This document shows, piece after piece, positions 236-5,551 of a stretch of 5,621 nucleotides of DNA (positions are counted from its first letter, which is position 1; each line of letters starts with the position of its first letter). Made by a program: the position numbers and the translations under genes. The notes under the pieces are model-generated. The model saw nothing but the letters and a program-made list of their open reading frames with translations, was not told where the DNA came from and did not search any database. The stretch is from a virus (taxonomy: Duplodnaviria > Heunggongvirae > Uroviricota > Caudoviricetes): the IMG/VR virus record IMGVR_UViG_2563366946_000003; one strand, 5' to 3'.

Positions 236-1207
236 TTAGTGCTTCCCTTCTATTAAGTCTAACCTAGCTTTTATTCTTTCTATTTCTCTGCGCTGCCATG
301 CTGCCTCGATATAGAATAAGAGATCAGGTCTGACCCCCCATCTAGATCCTGCTGGCGTTATTTCAACGCGCTCAATGATGTCTTCCATTACCATCACTGG
401 ATTATCATCCTCATCAACAATGATGCTCCCGTCATTATCAGTCAGCGGCATTTCCCTTTGGCCAGTAATGACGTCATCATATACTGCGGGATAATCGTCA
501 TAGCAAAGAAAGGCATAGCGGCATGTTGTGCTTTCTTCTTCCATGAGTCCGTGAGAAATAAGAACATCACGAAGTTGCTGCGCGATTACACCATGATGTA
601 TCCTCGCCCCTTCTTCCCCCTTTATAGCGACAGCGTTCAGCCATTTATAAGCGATATACCTGACGTCACCCCAGGCATCCAGCAATGTTTCGTCAGGAGA
701 GACCGGCTCTGTCTTTAATGTTCCGTCACTGGTAGCCACAGGATTGGAGCCAAGATAAACTATCGAGAACCTGTTTCCCGGACCACCAAGAGCATTTACA
801 TTATCAAGATAAGGTTTAACATCTCCGTTCTCAAAAAGATGTTCGAGTGCGTTATATACCGCGCGACGTGGAGTACTGCTTCTGGAACCATGCAACGTTA
901 TCATTGCACCATCTGCTGAAGACGTTGTTTCACCGCCGCTAACGATTAATCTCTGAGCGGTAACATCATCAGACGGTACTTTCTTCGCAATAATGGCGTA
1001 ATTACCCTCAAGTTTGACTTCCGCGCGAACTTGTCCTGATGTACCTGCATGGACAGTCAGTGACTGGACGGCAACATCATCTGTGAAATCAACGGGTACA
1101 GGAACCGTCCTCACGCCTGACGTCGACATAAAAGTAGGAAGCGTTCTGTTAGGAGTGGCTCCGTAGACAAAATCCCTTGAAACAAATTCTTCCTGTTTAA
1201 TTTTCAC
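236..1207 (-). CDS. Phage tail fiber/tailspike-like protein, C-terminal fragment with S74-type intramolecular chaperone (autoproteolytic) domain; 5' end probably truncated by IS629
   Basis: 323-aa ORF with TAA stop at 238-236. The C-terminal half carries the pattern I associate with S74 chaperone domains of tail fibers and endosialidases (ATSDGTLKT ... LDAWGDVRYIAYKW ... ARIHHGVIAQQLRDVL). The annotated start is a GTG only 4 bp from the IS629 left end at 1212, so the true N-terminus is most likely missing. Confidence 0.6.
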   Translation of the reverse strand: MKIKQEEFVSRDFVYGATPNRTLPTFMSTSGVRTVPVPVDFTDDVAVQSLTVHAGTSGQVRAEVKLEGNYAIIAKKVPSDDVTAQRLIVSGGETTSSADGAMITLHGSRSSTPRRAVYNALEHLFENGDVKPYLDNVNALGGPGNRFSIVYLGSNPVATSDGTLKTEPVSPDETLLDAWGDVRYIAYKWLNAVAIKGEEGARIHHGVIAQQLRDVLISHGLMEEESTTCRYAFLCYDDYPAVYDDVITGQREMPLTDNDGSIIVDEDDNPVMVMEDIIERVEITPAGSRWGVRPDLLFYIEAAWQRREIERIKARLDLIEGKH

Positions 1208-1265: not shown

Positions 1266-1592
1266 ATGACTAAAAATACTCGTTTTTCCCCCGAAGTCCG
1301 TCAACGGGCAGTCCGTATGGTTCTGGAAAGTCAGAGCGAATATGACTCACAATGGGCGACAATTTGTTCCATTGCTCCAAAGATTGGCTGTACGCCGGAG
1401 ACTCTGCGTGTCTGGGTTCGCCAGCATGAGCGGGATACCGGGGGCGGTGATGGAGGGCTCACCACCGCTGAACGTCAGCGTCTGAAAGAGCTGGAACGTG
1501 AAAAGCGTGAACTGCGCCGCAGTAACGATATCCTTCGCCAGGCTTCCGCTTATTTTGCGAAGGCGGAGTTCGACCGCCTCTGGAAAAAATGA
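1266..1592 (+). CDS. IS629 OrfA (IS3-family transposase N-terminal HTH/leucine-zipper subunit)
   Basis: 108 aa, [50 protein letters not shown]..., ATG 54 bp inside IRL. The heptad-like [24 protein letters not shown] stretch is typical of IS3 OrfA. Confidence 0.93.
1581..1592 (+). other. Probable programmed -1 ribosomal frameshift window (A6 run) joining OrfA and OrfB into the OrfAB transposase
   Basis: TGG AAA AAA TGA at the OrfA end; the OrfB ATG (1589-1591) is in the -1 frame and overlaps the A-run. IS3-family elements characteristically make OrfAB this way. Confidence 0.5.
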
Positions 1593-2479
1593 TGCCACTG
1601 CTGGATAAGCTGCGTGAGCAGTACGGGGTCGGACCGCTATGCAGCGAACTGCATATTGCCCCGTCAACGTATTACCACTGTCAGCAACAGCGACATCATC
1701 CGGATAAACGCAGTGCCCGTGCGCAGCGCGATGACTGGCTGAAGAAAGAGATACAGCGCGTATACGATGAAAATCACAAGGTATACGGTGTGCGTAAAGT
1801 CTGGCGTCAGTTGTTACGGGAAGGTATCAGAGTGGCCAGATGCACTGTGGCACGTCTCATGGCGGTTATGGGACTTGCCGGTGTTCTCCGGGGTAAAAAG
1901 GTCCGTACGACCATCAGCCGGAAAGCCGTTGCCGCAGGCGACCGCGTAAACCGTCAGTTCGTGGCAGAACGACCTGACCAGCTGTGGGTGGCTGATTTTA
2001 CTTACGTCAGCACATGGCGGGGCTTCGTCTATGTGGCGTTCATCATTGATGTGTTTGCCGGATACATCGTGGGGTGGCGGGTCTCATCGTCCATGGAAAC
2101 GACATTCGTGCTGGATGCACTGGAGCAGGCGTTATGGGCCCGTCGACCGTCCGGCACGGTCCATCACAGTGATAAAGGTTCTCAGTATGTATCGCTGGCC
2201 TACACACAGCGGCTTAAGGAAGCCGGATTACTGGCATCAACAGGAAGTACAGGCGACTCGTATGACAACGCGATGGCGGAGAGCATCAATGGTCTTTACA
2301 AAGCGGAGGTAATACACCGTAAGAGCTGGAAAAACCGTGCAGAAGTGGAACTGGCCACACTCACGTGGGTGGACTGGTATAACAATCGACGATTGCTGGA
2401 AAGGCTGGGCCATACTCCTCCGGCAGAAGCAGAAAAAGCTTATTATGCTTCCATCGGAAACGATGATCTGGCAGCCTGA
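1589..2479 (+). CDS. IS629 OrfB (IS3-family transposase catalytic DDE domain)
   Basis: 296 aa in the -1 frame relative to OrfA. DDE-type core visible (WVADFTYV ... HHSDKGSQY ... [11 protein letters not shown]). Confidence 0.93.
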
Positions 2480-2521: not shown

Positions 2522-2776
2522 TCTAAAATTGCTATACTATTCATGTTGGTTTTTCTCCACGGATTTACCGACAACCGAAGCCCTGACTGTTCCAGCAGTT
2601 GGGGCTTCACTGTTTTGATTTCTTTGCCGCATCAAGCATCACTTCTGAAAACGTGCGCTTGCCACTGAATACTCTTTCTCTTCTCAATTTTTCGTTCGTG
2701 CCAAATGATTCGCCATGAACAAAATTTGGTCTTAAAATGGTAATCGCAATCTCTTTGACTACTGCATCCAAGCGAA

Positions 2777-2929
2777 TCACACCGTTACCCCCTCTCTCTT
2801 CAGGCTGTCTATCAGGCGCTTGATAACCTCTGAGTTAAACGACCTGCACTCTTCCTTTGCCCTGCTACCGATAGCATCCTTTAACGACTGCGGCATCCTT
2901 ACCAAAATCTTACTTATTTCTTTCTCCAT
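2777..2929 (-). CDS. Arc-like ribbon-helix-helix (Arc/MetJ superfamily) transcriptional repressor, 50 aa
   Basis: MEKEISKILVRMPQSLKDAIGSRAKEECRSFNSEVIKRLIDSLKREGVTV; the RSFNSEV...SLKREG region resembles P22 Arc (GRSVNSEIYQRVMESFKKEG, from memory). I chose the ATG at 2929 because GGAGGG sits 4 nt upstream; the track's longer ORF (to 2965) starts at a TTG with no RBS. Confidence 0.7.
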   Translation of the reverse strand: MEKEISKILVRMPQSLKDAIGSRAKEECRSFNSEVIKRLIDSLKREGVTV

Positions 2930-2965
2930 GTTACCCTCCACGCAAACAACTCTTTTCGAATACAA

Positions 2966-2994: not shown

Positions 2995-3020
2995 AATTTT
3001 TTTGCATACACTTTGCTATC
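2968..3020. promoter_or_regulatory. Candidate operator: 12-bp perfect inverted repeat GATAGCAAAGTG (2968-2979) / CACTTTGCTATC (3009-3020), 29-bp spacer, between the divergent RHH genes
   Basis: Exact reverse-complement arms read directly from the sequence. They lie between the two RHH start codons and overlap both putative -10 elements. Confidence 0.45.
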
Positions 3021-3022
3021 AA
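3014..3022 (+). promoter_or_regulatory. Putative extended -10 element (TGcTATCAA) for the Mnt-like/peptidase operon
   Basis: TG-n-TATCAA about 22 nt upstream of the ATG at 3044; overlaps the right operator arm. No convincing -35 found. Confidence 0.2.
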
Positions 3023-3043
3023 ATTGAATACCAAAGGTGTTAT

Positions 3044-3292
3044 ATGGCAAAGGGTGTGTCAATTTCTCCAACTACGGTAAGAATCCCTGAATCTTTACGC
3101 GAGGCTCTTGCTGTCAGAGCATCAAAAAATGGTCGCTCTGTTAACTCCGAGATCGTCATGATTTTGCAAGCCGCGATTGATGAAGATAGGTCGCCAAAGT
3201 CAGTTGAGTCATTTGCTCAGCAAGAAGCTGATAAATTCAAAGAGGCGCTACTTGAGACGCTAAAGACCATGTATGCTAAGGATGAAAAATAA
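3044..3292 (+). CDS. Mnt-like ribbon-helix-helix (Arc/MetJ superfamily) repressor, 82 aa
   Basis: MAKGVSISPTTVRIPESLREALAVRASKNGRSVNSEIVMILQAAIDEDR...LKTMYAKDEK resembles P22 Mnt in length, in the NGRS(V/M)NSE motif and in the C-terminal ...LK(D/T)(L/M)Y(K/A)K tail (from memory). AGGTG lies 6 nt upstream of the ATG at 3044; the track's 14-codon N-terminal extension has no RBS. Confidence 0.75.
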   Translation: MAKGVSISPTTVRIPESLREALAVRASKNGRSVNSEIVMILQAAIDEDRSPKSVESFAQQEADKFKEALLETLKTMYAKDEK

Positions 3293-3828
3293 TGCTGCAC
3301 ACAATTCATTTCTTATGCCCTGTTAACACTGCCACTGTTGGGCAACTTCAGAACCACTGTCTCACCGCATTATCTCAAGGCGCAACTGAATTAAATATCC
3401 ATATATCAAGTCAGGGAGGGGAAACTGCTGCTGGCTTTACTGCGTATAACTTTCTTAAGTCACTCCCTGTTACCGTTAGAACTCACAACATAAGCAATGT
3501 TGAATCCATAGCTAATATCGTTTTCCTGGCTGGCTCAGAACGTTTCGCAAACCCATTATCAAGATTCCTGTTACATCCTCTATTATGGTGCTTTGCCTCC
3601 CCAGCCGCCGACCATGCCAGATTGAGAGAGTACGGGAAATGCCTCGATAACGATCTTGATCGCTTCGTTGAGACGTTCAATATCGACATCGGAACCCATA
3701 TTAGGTGGGCATCCCTGATAGCAGACTCGACCATTTTGGATGCTAACAAGGCTCTTGAGCATGGCATAATTAATTCCATAAAAACTGCAAGGCTGGCATC
3801 CAATCAGGCAAACTGGTGGGTTGTTTGA
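3292..3828 (+). CDS. Stand-alone ClpP-fold (S14-like) serine peptidase, 178 aa, translationally coupled to the Mnt-like gene
   Basis: ISSQGGETAAGFTAYNFL aligns with the ClpP [20 protein letters not shown] motif. By manual alignment the ClpP catalytic Ser and His fall on S72 (NVESIAN) and H95 (SRFLLHP), and the C-terminal ALEHGIINSI resembles ClpP AVEYGLVDSI. Its ATG overlaps the Mnt-like TAA (TAATG at 3290-3294). Confidence 0.75.
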   Translation: MLHTIHFLCPVNTATVGQLQNHCLTALSQGATELNIHISSQGGETAAGFTAYNFLKSLPVTVRTHNISNVESIANIVFLAGSERFANPLSRFLLHPLLWCFASPAADHARLREYGKCLDNDLDRFVETFNIDIGTHIRWASLIADSTILDANKALEHGIINSIKTARLASNQANWWVV

Positions 3829-3852
3829 TGGGTAAATCATGATTACTCCTTA

Positions 3853-3879
3853 TAAAAAACCCACCTGACGGTGGGTTTA
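3853..3879. terminator. Bidirectional rho-independent terminator between the convergent peptidase and YafO-like genes
   Basis: ACCCACC (3859-3865), loop TGAC, GGTGGGT (3870-3876), with A6 upstream and TTT downstream. On the minus strand the hairpin is followed by TTTTTTATA. Confidence 0.6.
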
Positions 3880-4326
3880 GTCAAACATAGTGTTTCTAAA
3901 GTCTCTCGCATACCCTGCTAACACTCTCATTCTATTATGATTGTTAGCAGACATGTGAGCTACAGGATGAAAAAGAGCAATCAATGAATACCTGTTCTCA
4001 TCAAAAAGATTTTGTGCATAAACGAGAGCGGTATTGGATGTTTTATGCCACTGCAACTTTTGCGGTGTGCTGATATCTGTGCCATTTTTTATTGGCTCAA
4101 ATTTATTTTCACCAATTGCTAAATGAAGGTGCATAAGGCCTGCATCTTCAATATCAGGAGGTCGATGATAAGAGGTGTCTCTGCCAAAATAGCTGGGCAA
4201 CGTTCCCGTAGACTTGTAGATGATAAAATCATCTACAAGTGTTTGTTTTAAATCAGGAAACTCAACAAAAACCGGGGAGAAAAAATAGTCAAAACTATCC
4301 TGATTATATTCCACGGTTACTTGCAT
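3877..4326 (-). CDS. YafO-family toxin homologue (type II TA ribosome-dependent mRNA interferase family), 149 aa
   Basis: DDFIIYKSTGTLPSYFGRDTSYH ... MHLHLAIGEN ... ALVYAQNLFDENRYSLIALFHP ... NNHNRM aligns well by eye with E. coli YafO as I recall it (ADFISYKRDGVLPDTFGRDALYD ... AHIHLANEN ... HLVYCQGAFDEQAWLLIAILKP ... DNNQMH). GAGGT RBS lies 5 nt upstream of the ATG. Confidence 0.7.
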   Translation of the reverse strand: MQVTVEYNQDSFDYFFSPVFVEFPDLKQTLVDDFIIYKSTGTLPSYFGRDTSYHRPPDIEDAGLMHLHLAIGENKFEPIKNGTDISTPQKLQWHKTSNTALVYAQNLFDENRYSLIALFHPVAHMSANNHNRMRVLAGYARDFRNTMFD

Positions 4327-4334
4327 GTTTTACC

Positions 4335-4901
4335 TCAGTGGAAGTTACCAGAGTGAAACACACGAGTCCCGTGCTCAGCAAGCGCACGCAAACCAGCCAT
4401 ATCTACGGAACTATCAAAAACAACCGGAACACATGAGCGTTGTTTAATAAGACTATTCAGGTTGGTTACGGCAGATCTGGCATCAGCAACAACGATATAG
4501 ATATCTCTTGCGATCTCTTTAAAATCAGCAGAAGCTTCTTTGAATACCGATTTCATTGCCCCTTCAAGTCCTCTCAATTGATGCTCTATCAATCGAGACT
4601 TTTCTGGTTCAATGATAGACAACACATTGTCTACATTCTCATCGGTAGCGTTTGCAAGAACACGATAAGCGTATTTCAGCATTCGAGACAATTCTTTAAT
4701 CGAAGACACCGCCTCATGAAGCTCATCATTAGCCCGTTCACTGCTGAATGAGGATTGATGGTAAGCGTGCTGAACGTTATCAGTAACAACCACCTCACAA
4801 CTGAACGCAGAAGCTTGCTGTAATAGCAAACCTATTGCGACTCCAGCTTTGGCAGCGTTCAAGCTAAACATTTCATCAATCCCATTAGTCTCATTGCTCA
4901 T
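4335..4901 (-). CDS. Hypothetical 188-aa protein encoded immediately upstream of, and co-operonic with, the YafO-like toxin; family not recognised
   Basis: Start placed at ATG 4901 (MSNETNGIDEMF...) because a perfect AAGGAGG lies 5 nt upstream; the track's TTG start at 4931 lies upstream of that RBS. The TGA stop (4337-4335) is 8 nt from the toxin ATG and overlaps its RBS. Not Phd/YefM/YafN-like in size or sequence. Confidence 0.6.
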   Translation of the reverse strand: MSNETNGIDEMFSLNAAKAGVAIGLLLQQASAFSCEVVVTDNVQHAYHQSSFSSERANDELHEAVSSIKELSRMLKYAYRVLANATDENVDNVLSIIEPEKSRLIEHQLRGLEGAMKSVFKEASADFKEIARDIYIVVADARSAVTNLNSLIKQRSCVPVVFDSSVDMAGLRALAEHGTRVFHSGNFH

Positions 4902-5076
4902 ACAAACCTCCTTCTTATCGGAGATTATCAATAGCTATGCATCCATTGAATACACGCTATGCGCAATAAGTTTACGTCACGTGATATCATTATGCAACCA
5001 CCGTTCTATCACCGACTAACTTTACTCCCACTCCTATACATCATCTGGTATCCTGCGCAAAACTAAGGAGGTTGGT

Positions 5077-5427
5077 GTGAATGCTCAGTCTGTCATCATG
5101 GTTTTCCTTGGGCTGATTGTCGCAAAACTATATCCAGACTGGTGGAAAGGGGCATTAGCTACTGTCGCCATCTATTTGCTTTTATCCATCGTTAAGCGAT
5201 CACTCGCTGAGACCGTAAATCAAGCAAAACGTTTCTCATTTAAGAGTTTAATAAACTATGTTACTGGGCTTATTTTTTGCCTTTCAATTCTGATCGCTTC
5301 GGCTTTTTTGCCCGTATCAATAGCTAATTTTTTTGGCGCACCATATGAGGTAGGTTATCTATTCTCTGTTTCCTGTCTTGCCATTGCTCTTCTTTACCTG
5401 TGGACGAGATCAAAGAATAAAAATTAG
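5077..5427 (+). CDS. Small integral membrane protein, 116 aa, about 4 predicted TM helices; function unknown
   Basis: GTG start at 5077 preceded by AAGGAGG (5064-5070). Four hydrophobic stretches: SVIMVFLGLIVAKLY, ALATVAIYLLLSIV, LINYVTGLIFCLSILIASAFL, GYLFSVSCLAIALLYLW. Confidence 0.6.
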   Translation: MNAQSVIMVFLGLIVAKLYPDWWKGALATVAIYLLLSIVKRSLAETVNQAKRFSFKSLINYVTGLIFCLSILIASAFLPVSIANFFGAPYEVGYLFSVSCLAIALLYLWTRSKNKN

Positions 5428-5551
5428 CCATCCGTGGCTGCCAGTTATTGAGCTTCTTTTTGTGATGCCTGTGCGACTCTGGTGAGCGATTGTGTGACCG
5501 TACTGATCGCTCTGTCATATGCTGTGCTACCTTTTGGCGTATTTGCCAGAC

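Follow-up and report, generated by a model that had tools for sequence, protein, structure and literature searches.

A two-gene cassette in a 5,621-nt stretch of a Caudoviricetes virus record (IMGVR_UViG_2563366946_000003; the whole stretch is hereafter called the window) joins a YafO-family toxin gene to an upstream gene encoding a 188-aa protein of an unnamed family, hereafter called the partner. We consider it probable that this pair is a type II toxin-antitoxin cassette, in which the partner is the cognate antitoxin and neutralizes the toxin by direct binding. The two genes showed strict synteny across genera and replicon types, recurring on numerous phages and plasmids from gut and hospital bacteria, and their proteins diverged in parallel. 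We note that the partner family is a widespread candidate antitoxin family, described here from its sequences, with one odd feature, a signal-like N-terminus.

Toxin, partner, and cassette anatomy

YafO is one of the classical Escherichia coli toxins. An earlier note on this stretch had proposed a YafO-family toxin beside an upstream protein without a Phd/YefM, ribbon-helix-helix (RHH), helix-turn-helix (HTH), or AbrB motif, and both points were borne out. The 149-aa toxin matched Pfam family PF13957 (YafO_toxin) with E = 3.4e-22 and 78.9 bits (cut-off, 25) across profile positions 3–101 of 101. Against NF007377, the NCBIfam equivalog for K-12 YafO, it scored 79 bits, below the cut-off of 153, which we interpret as membership in the YafO family within a separate clade, not as orthology to K-12 YafO. 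A structural model built on 56 homologues had a predicted local distance difference test (pLDDT) score of 95.3, and its top structural matches were RelE, HigB, YafQ, and YoeB. The model predicts a RelE-type alpha/beta fold of the RelE/ParE (BECR-fold) superfamily. Eight residues (F34, G48, D50, H66, H68, L101, Y103, and H124) were invariant among phage, plasmid, and K-12 YafO proteins, and the GRD, HxHL, LVY, and AH residues are common to the toxin and the experimentally toxic K-12 YafO. By these measures the toxin looks intact, and it would be expected to act as an endoribonuclease and to inhibit growth.

The partner had no meaningful match in Pfam, NCBIfam, or PADLOC. None of 25 diverse members of its family matched any Pfam model, and neither Pfam nor NCBIfam revealed an HTH, RHH, AbrB, Phd, or other DNA-binding domain in them. 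A profile of the family found no real match among Protein Data Bank sequences, and alignment with YafN by hhalign gave a probability of 0.3%, so that the two are unrelated. The partner belongs to PHROG 8416 (function unknown; E = 2.2e-96). Across six subfamilies, all database names were "hypothetical protein" except for one automatic "Lipoprotein" label, assigned in UniProt to the partner of Pseudomonas phage YMC11/02/R656. The partner falls into no described antitoxin family. In phage PhiR40_1 (PV340560), the partner homologue (positions 222–761 of locus L014) is annotated as "YafM antitoxin," a name that no literature supports; the label was probably mis-transferred, and yafM of K-12 is an unrelated gene.

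When 1.84 billion representatives were searched exhaustively with a profile, only 24 partner homologues emerged at E <= 0.001, a count that understates the family because partners diverge fast. The upstream proteins of HK639, YMC11/02/R656, PhiR40_1, Klebsiella phage-plasmids, and Klebsiella and Enterobacter IncF plasmids also matched the family profile, with hhalign probabilities of 94.8%–99.8% or hidden Markov model E values from 1e-69 to 2e-5. A short sequence (P0038) considered as a minimal antitoxin was rejected, as it is a fragment within a decayed locus.

In the AlphaFold2 model (mean pLDDT, 70; core, 88–94), the partner consists of an N-terminal helix (residues 16–35; hydrophobic segment at about 17–34), a disordered segment (36–53), a helical bundle (54–155), a linker, and a C-terminal helix (168–183) with a tail. 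The best-conserved stretch across subfamilies is formed by the C-terminal ~50 residues (ARSA..LN.L..Q....F.S.ID...L..LA.HGT....S..FH), which in the model correspond to the last helix of the bundle and then, beyond a disordered linker, to the terminal helix and tail. The tail itself, FHSGNFH, was invariant in the family alignments. The protein is acidic, with a net charge of about -7 and a pI of 5.5.

Both genes lie on the minus strand, where the partner open reading frame (ORF) runs from an ATG at 4901 to a TGA at 4337–4335 and the toxin ATG follows at 4326, leaving 8 nt (GGTAAAAC) between stop and start. The Shine-Dalgarno (SD) sequence of the toxin overlaps the partner stop, an arrangement that predicts translational coupling of the two genes. 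Across all intact homologous pairs, the gap between the genes ranged from -10 to +19 nt. The terminator hairpin beyond the toxin has a 9-bp stem (AAACCCACC/GGUGGGUUU), a GUCA loop, and a following U run; its folding energy was -16.3 kcal/mol (z = -2.79 relative to shuffles), and an identical element in Salmonella phage Emek carries a terminator annotation. Because its two flanks are an A-tract and a U-tract, the hairpin can act for both convergent units. The layout in the earlier note, with a partner stop 8 nt before the toxin ATG and overlapping its ribosome-binding site, a separate AAGGAGG ribosome-binding site for the partner (4913–4907), and a strong terminator over the toxin stop codon, therefore stands in every element.

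The 175-nt region upstream of the pair is conserved, with a mean column identity of 84% across E. coli and Salmonella relatives, and contains a candidate sigma-70 promoter that scored below the threshold of a consensus scan. Its TTGCA and TA.ACT blocks were kept in four E. coli and Salmonella loci; a promoter for the pair at this position is plausible, and it would be weak. Together, the hairpin after gene 16 (5439–5426) and the toxin terminator bound the cassette on both sides. With its own upstream region, two coupled genes, and a terminator, the cassette has the makeup of an autonomous moron in the immI region. Both ORFs are genuine genes: RefSeq annotates the two, and their proteins are conserved down to about 15–30% identity in other genera.

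Synteny and co-divergence of the pair

The earlier note had named co-occurrence of the two families as a check on its proposal, and co-occurrence was complete: a partner homologue lay directly upstream of the phage/plasmid-type YafO gene in 34 of 34 loci. These loci represent about 12 genera, including Escherichia, Salmonella, Proteus, Klebsiella, Enterobacter, Photorhabdus, Pseudomonas, Halomonas, and Gilliamella, and the elements that carry them are P22-like, lambdoid, myovirus, and P2-like prophages, phage-plasmids, IncF plasmids, and chromosomes. Twenty-two loci had been picked by the toxin alone, and a partner-family ORF was immediately upstream in each (22/22). This set comprised three phage records, four plasmid records, two Gilliamella prophage loci, one Halopseudomonas prophage locus, and 12 genome loci from Xenorhabdus, Photorhabdus, Pantoea, Phytobacter, Enterobacter, and Halomonas. 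Relatives picked by the partner (Salmonella P22-like prophages, Proteus myovirus prophages, and a P2-like island) each had a PF13957 gene 8–18 nt downstream. One locus (L011) considered as a partner without a toxin was rejected, as the toxin is present and had been overlooked by the gene caller.

Flanking genes varied between loci, which identifies the pair as the conserved unit. HK639 has the same layout as the window, and its annotation places a terminator directly behind the toxin gene. The only exceptions to the pairing involved short K-12-type toxins, namely K-12 YafO, which is found with YafN, and a chromosomal Endozoicomonas YafO without such a partner.

Pairwise identities among partners and among toxins were strongly correlated (r = 0.84), and none of 5000 Mantel permutations gave a value as high. 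The partner diverged faster, with a mean identity of 24.5% versus 45.4% for the toxin. Antitoxins typically diverge faster than their toxins. In two of the 12 genome loci, the toxin was frameshifted beside an intact partner, and the reverse was never seen, a pattern consistent with toxin decay within an otherwise retained module. The two toxin genes, each frameshifted near its 5' end, are at positions 655–1100 of locus L025 (Photorhabdus antumapuensis) and at 2430–2866 of locus L032 (Halomonas olivaria).

The exact pair was complete and at least 99% identical in all 55 carriers among 5426 complete E. coli genomes, and the carriers included prophages crippled by insertion sequence (IS) insertions. 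More broadly, the partner family is present in thousands of contigs, among them those of E. coli K1/extraintestinal pathogenic strains, Salmonella, Klebsiella and Enterobacter plasmids, Proteus, Photorhabdus, and Pseudomonas aeruginosa prophages.

A probable toxin-antitoxin cassette and competing explanations

The pair has the tight bicistronic spacing and the conservation as a pair that are expected of type II systems, as seen in the 8-nt gap, the 34 adjacent loci, and the Mantel correlation. The antitoxin-first gene order and the toxin SD in the partner stop also count for this reading. Under it, the YafO-type, RelE-fold toxin would be an mRNA endonuclease that halts translation, and the partner would be made first and in step with it through translational coupling. 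The partner would bind the toxin directly by the conserved third at its C-terminus (the final helix of the bundle, helix 168–183, and the FHSGNFH tail), occupying or occluding the active-site face as the C-termini of RelB, DinJ, and YefM do, and the helical bundle could be a scaffold or an oligomerization domain. From its conservation and from this analogy, the C-terminal third is most likely the toxin-binding, neutralizing element. If antitoxin supply failed, through loss of the element or through an infecting phage that shuts off host gene expression, free toxin would arrest the cell. The outcome would be maintenance of the element and/or abortive-infection defense of the lysogen, roles that are suggested by the presence of the cassette in prophage accessory regions and on plasmids.

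The closest described system is YafN-YafO of K-12, a type II system in the dinB-yafN-yafO-yafP operon. It shares with the cassette the toxin family PF13957, the GRD, HxHL, LVY, and AH residues, the antitoxin-then-toxin order, and tight coupling. However, the toxin of the window is only about 30–38% identical to K-12 YafO and has an extra N-terminal extension of ~12 residues, and the all-helical partner of 188 aa is unrelated to YafN, a Phd/YefM-type protein of 97 aa. Searches with Pfam, NCBIfam, and hhalign found no Phd/YefM-type antitoxin upstream of the toxin, as a canonical yafNO pair has, and the setting is a prophage moron rather than the SOS-regulated dinB operon. The antitoxins of RelBE, DinJ-YafQ, YefM-YoeB, and HigBA have RHH, Phd, or HTH domains and 70–100 aa, whereas the partner has none of these domains and is about twice as long; most of its relatives also differ from those antitoxins in having a signal-like N-terminus.

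Two other comparisons concern the N-terminus and the location. In toxin-antitoxin-chaperone (TAC) systems, antitoxin availability hangs on a hydrophobic segment that resembles an export client (SecB-dependent "chaperone addiction"), a likeness that we treat as analogy only. No SecB-like third gene was found at any of the 34 loci, and the hydrophobic segment of the partner family stands at the N-terminus and looks like a whole signal peptide, in contrast to the C-terminal extension of TAC antitoxins. Like the P22 immI morons (sieA and similar) and prophage abortive-infection genes such as BstA, the cassette has its own upstream region, a terminator, and varying flanks. In contrast to those genes, it has no PADLOC match and occurs also on non-phage plasmids.

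YafO has been classed as an mRNase of the BECR fold whose gene follows that of the antitoxin, and TAC modules with RelE-superfamily toxins (HigB, MqsR) are mentioned in the same source, one of them in abortive infection (PMC11980606). Leplae et al. 2011 linked YafO to Phd and to "guilt-by-association" sequences that were untested (PMC3141249), a survey of E. coli from 2023 listed 13 partner clusters for YafO toxins with a proportion known of only 0.08 (PMC10790755), and a P. aeruginosa prophage survey lists a YafO toxin without a partner (PMC10449497). We found no paper that names or characterizes the partner family. The earlier note had presented the partner as an unrecognised companion for YafO and as a possible new antitoxin family. 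It is indeed unrecognised and without a named family, but it is not peculiar to this locus, being standard for phage- and plasmid-borne YafO toxins, and the unclassified status of most YafO partners had been pointed out in earlier surveys (PMC3141249, PMC10790755). Of the three options that the earlier note offered (a new antitoxin family, a fused regulator-antitoxin, or a sensor component), the first is the one best supported by the sequences. Mobile YafO relatives are routinely annotated as orphan toxins, and here they are shown with one conserved, unnamed partner family. Defining this family would close an annotation gap and bring in an antitoxin fold that lacks any DNA-binding domain. The cassette is also a candidate for prophage- or plasmid-borne phage defense or addiction in clinically important strains.

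Several observations weigh against the type II reading. The phage/plasmid-type YafO toxins are mostly acidic (pI 5.2–6.4, 13 loci), with a pI of 8.7–9.0 only in a Klebsiella phage-plasmid subgroup; K-12 YafO is close to neutral (pI 7.0), and classical ribosome-dependent RelE toxins are typically basic. The toxin matched none of the PADLOC-DB v2 families, and no defense model of that database matched the pair, the partner reaching only 14 bits to the coiled-coil region of ZorA. No clear operator palindrome was found upstream of the pair except for two mirrored ribosome-binding sites, and with no DNA-binding domain in the partner, the usual type II autoregulation is unaccounted for. A DNA-binding, autoregulating antitoxin is common in type II systems, although not universal. 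We found no report of toxicity, rescue, or binding for the pair in the literature. Additionally, by a crude rule, 34 of 43 partners had a Sec-signal-like start, compared with 17 of 97 background ORFs and none of 14 toxins, and export would take the partner out of the compartment of the toxin, at odds with direct neutralization of a cytoplasmic RNase.

This last observation could mean that the partner is truly exported or membrane-tethered, by a Sec signal peptide or a signal anchor, and that the pair is not a classical cytoplasmic complex, which we regard as unlikely. In most subfamilies the hydrophobic core follows a basic n-region, Pro is found near -5/-6, and positions -3/-1 hold small residues; examples are MNLSLRNCLAVVLFGGVLSVPSFSA followed by GY, MNPFNAITFAALCGPLACPAAMA by QE, and MANHSVINSAILAALFAFSSQA by DE, with the apparent cleavage point in between. 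The character of the segment is conserved and its sequence is not, a variable linker that is disordered in the AlphaFold2 model follows it, as in secreted or tethered proteins, and the UniProt "Lipoprotein" label on the YMC11/02/R656 partner points the same way. However, the signal call comes from the crude rule and not from a dedicated predictor, and the partner in the window has a weaker segment behind an acidic N-extension; with Met1 as the start it fails the rule (net charge of -3 ahead of a 9-residue h-region), and only a start at Met11 lets it pass, whereas its strong SD serves Met1. In the subgroup of the window (~35% overall identity), conservation is absolute at G24-L25-L26 and almost so at Q28, beyond the needs of a generic signal peptide and suggestive of a more specific role. 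The segment is absent from the pJN2-26/Klebsiella phage-plasmid subgroup, the toxin carries no export signal and is predicted to have a cytoplasmic-type fold, and we found no earlier case in the literature in which the antitoxin of a RelE-type toxin is exported. Export might take one of two forms. The precursor might neutralize the toxin, with export instead of proteolysis making the partner short-lived, or an envelope-located partner might report envelope or Sec status (e.g., phage DNA injection, membrane depolarization) and so govern toxin release; the partner may likewise be the sensor component of a defense module that the earlier note had suggested. A specific arrangement, in which a working Sec signal lets the export machinery continually remove or tether a neutralizing precursor until phage disturbance of translation, Sec, or membrane energization unleashes the toxin, seems to us distinctly unlikely. 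If true, it would make protein export, in place of proteolysis, the readout of a toxin-antitoxin switch, and any functional role of the signal-like N-terminus would point to a novel mode of toxin control.

Two further explanations change the role of one protein or the other. We think it very improbable that the YafO-like protein is not self-poisoning and instead acts as an RNase on incoming phage or competitor RNA, or as a phage-development factor, with the partner as a co-factor or activator. The cassette is co-oriented with the late operon, so that antiterminated late transcription would read through it, given late transcription in P22 and the gene order, and the toxins are acidic and have an N-terminal extension missing from K-12 YafO. 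Yet the same cassette is found on IncF plasmids and in chromosomes where there is no phage development to serve, it is kept in defective prophages, frameshifts strike the toxin only, and the residues of the toxic K-12 YafO are kept. Least probable of all is that the partner is a regulator fused to an antitoxin, as the earlier note had also offered, or a pure regulator, repressing the operon by DNA binding so that the toxin is controlled mainly by expression. The partner does exceed the minimal antitoxin size, and the upstream intergenic region is conserved between E. coli and Salmonella, but no DNA-binding domain or fold was found among the 25 family members, the protein is acidic, and the mirrored ribosome-binding sites are the only operator-like inverted repeat.

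Prophage setting and neighboring genes

The window corresponds to the immI end of an E. coli prophage of the CUS-3/P22-like type (Table 1), and K1-type chromosomes (for example, S88, APEC O1, and ATCC 11775) are 100% identical to window positions 3800–5000. In S88, where the prophage is integrated beside a tRNA-Arg gene, this stretch has the DNA-ejection gene 16 on one side and the mnt/arc/ant/tailspike block on the other, and mapping from S88 places the gene 16 stop at about 5445. The cassette occupies the spot between gene 16 and mnt/arc, which in P22 harbors the superinfection-exclusion gene, and the gene for the 116-aa membrane protein stands at the place of sieA in P22.

Table 1. Features of the window and their coordinates
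Feature	Position	Strand	Remarks
Truncated endosialidase tailspike	236–1207	-	5' two-thirds replaced by IS3-family element
IS3-family element	1266–2479	+	ALIL frameshift pseudoknot (RF01497) at 1547–1663
sar antisense RNA of P22-type immI region	2545–2611	+	Rfam RF00262, 83.9 bits
arc	2777–2965	-	
Mnt/Arc-like RHH gene	3002–3292	+	
ClpP-like gene, 178 aa	3292–3828	+	Pfam CLP_protease 2.2e-11; related to phage head-maturation proteases
Intrinsic terminator hairpin	3852–3878		Begins inside toxin UAA stop (3879–3877)
YafO-family toxin gene, 149 aa	3877–4326	-	Predicted RelE/ParE-superfamily fold
Toxin SD, GAGG	4333–4336	-	Overlaps partner TGA stop
Partner gene, 188 aa, putative antitoxin	4335–4901	-	Unnamed family; PHROG 8416
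Partner SD, AAGGAGG	4907–4913	-	5 nt before ATG; kept in Salmonella relatives
Candidate weak sigma-70 promoter	4969–4997	-	TTGCAT (4997–4992), 17-nt spacer, TAAACT (4974–4969)
Small multi-pass membrane protein, 116 aa	5077–5427	+	No family match
Terminator-like hairpin	5426–5439	-	Directly after gene 16 stop; overlaps 3' end of convergent membrane-protein gene

The prophage in the window is defective at ant/tailspike, and the YafO pair is nonetheless kept. The target gene of sar, ant, is missing from the window and the IS3-family element stands in its place; ant is still present in S88 and ATCC 11775, the latter with an IS21 nearby instead. The RHH gene and the ClpP-like gene overlap by 1 nt, run convergently to the YafO pair, and have the terminator in common with it. 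In the Salmonella and L005 relatives the ClpP-like gene has no counterpart, and we therefore interpret it as a separate insertion. We considered the ClpP-like and Mnt-like RHH genes as parts of the system and rejected both, as they are missing from the Salmonella and L005 relatives that bear the pair.

The ribosome-binding site and start of the membrane-protein gene (AAGGAGGTTGGTGTGA) nearly mirror those of the partner (AAGGAGGTTTGTATGA) and together form a 16-nt inverted repeat (4898–4913 and 5065–5080). RefSeq places the start of the membrane protein 21 nt later, at an ATG.

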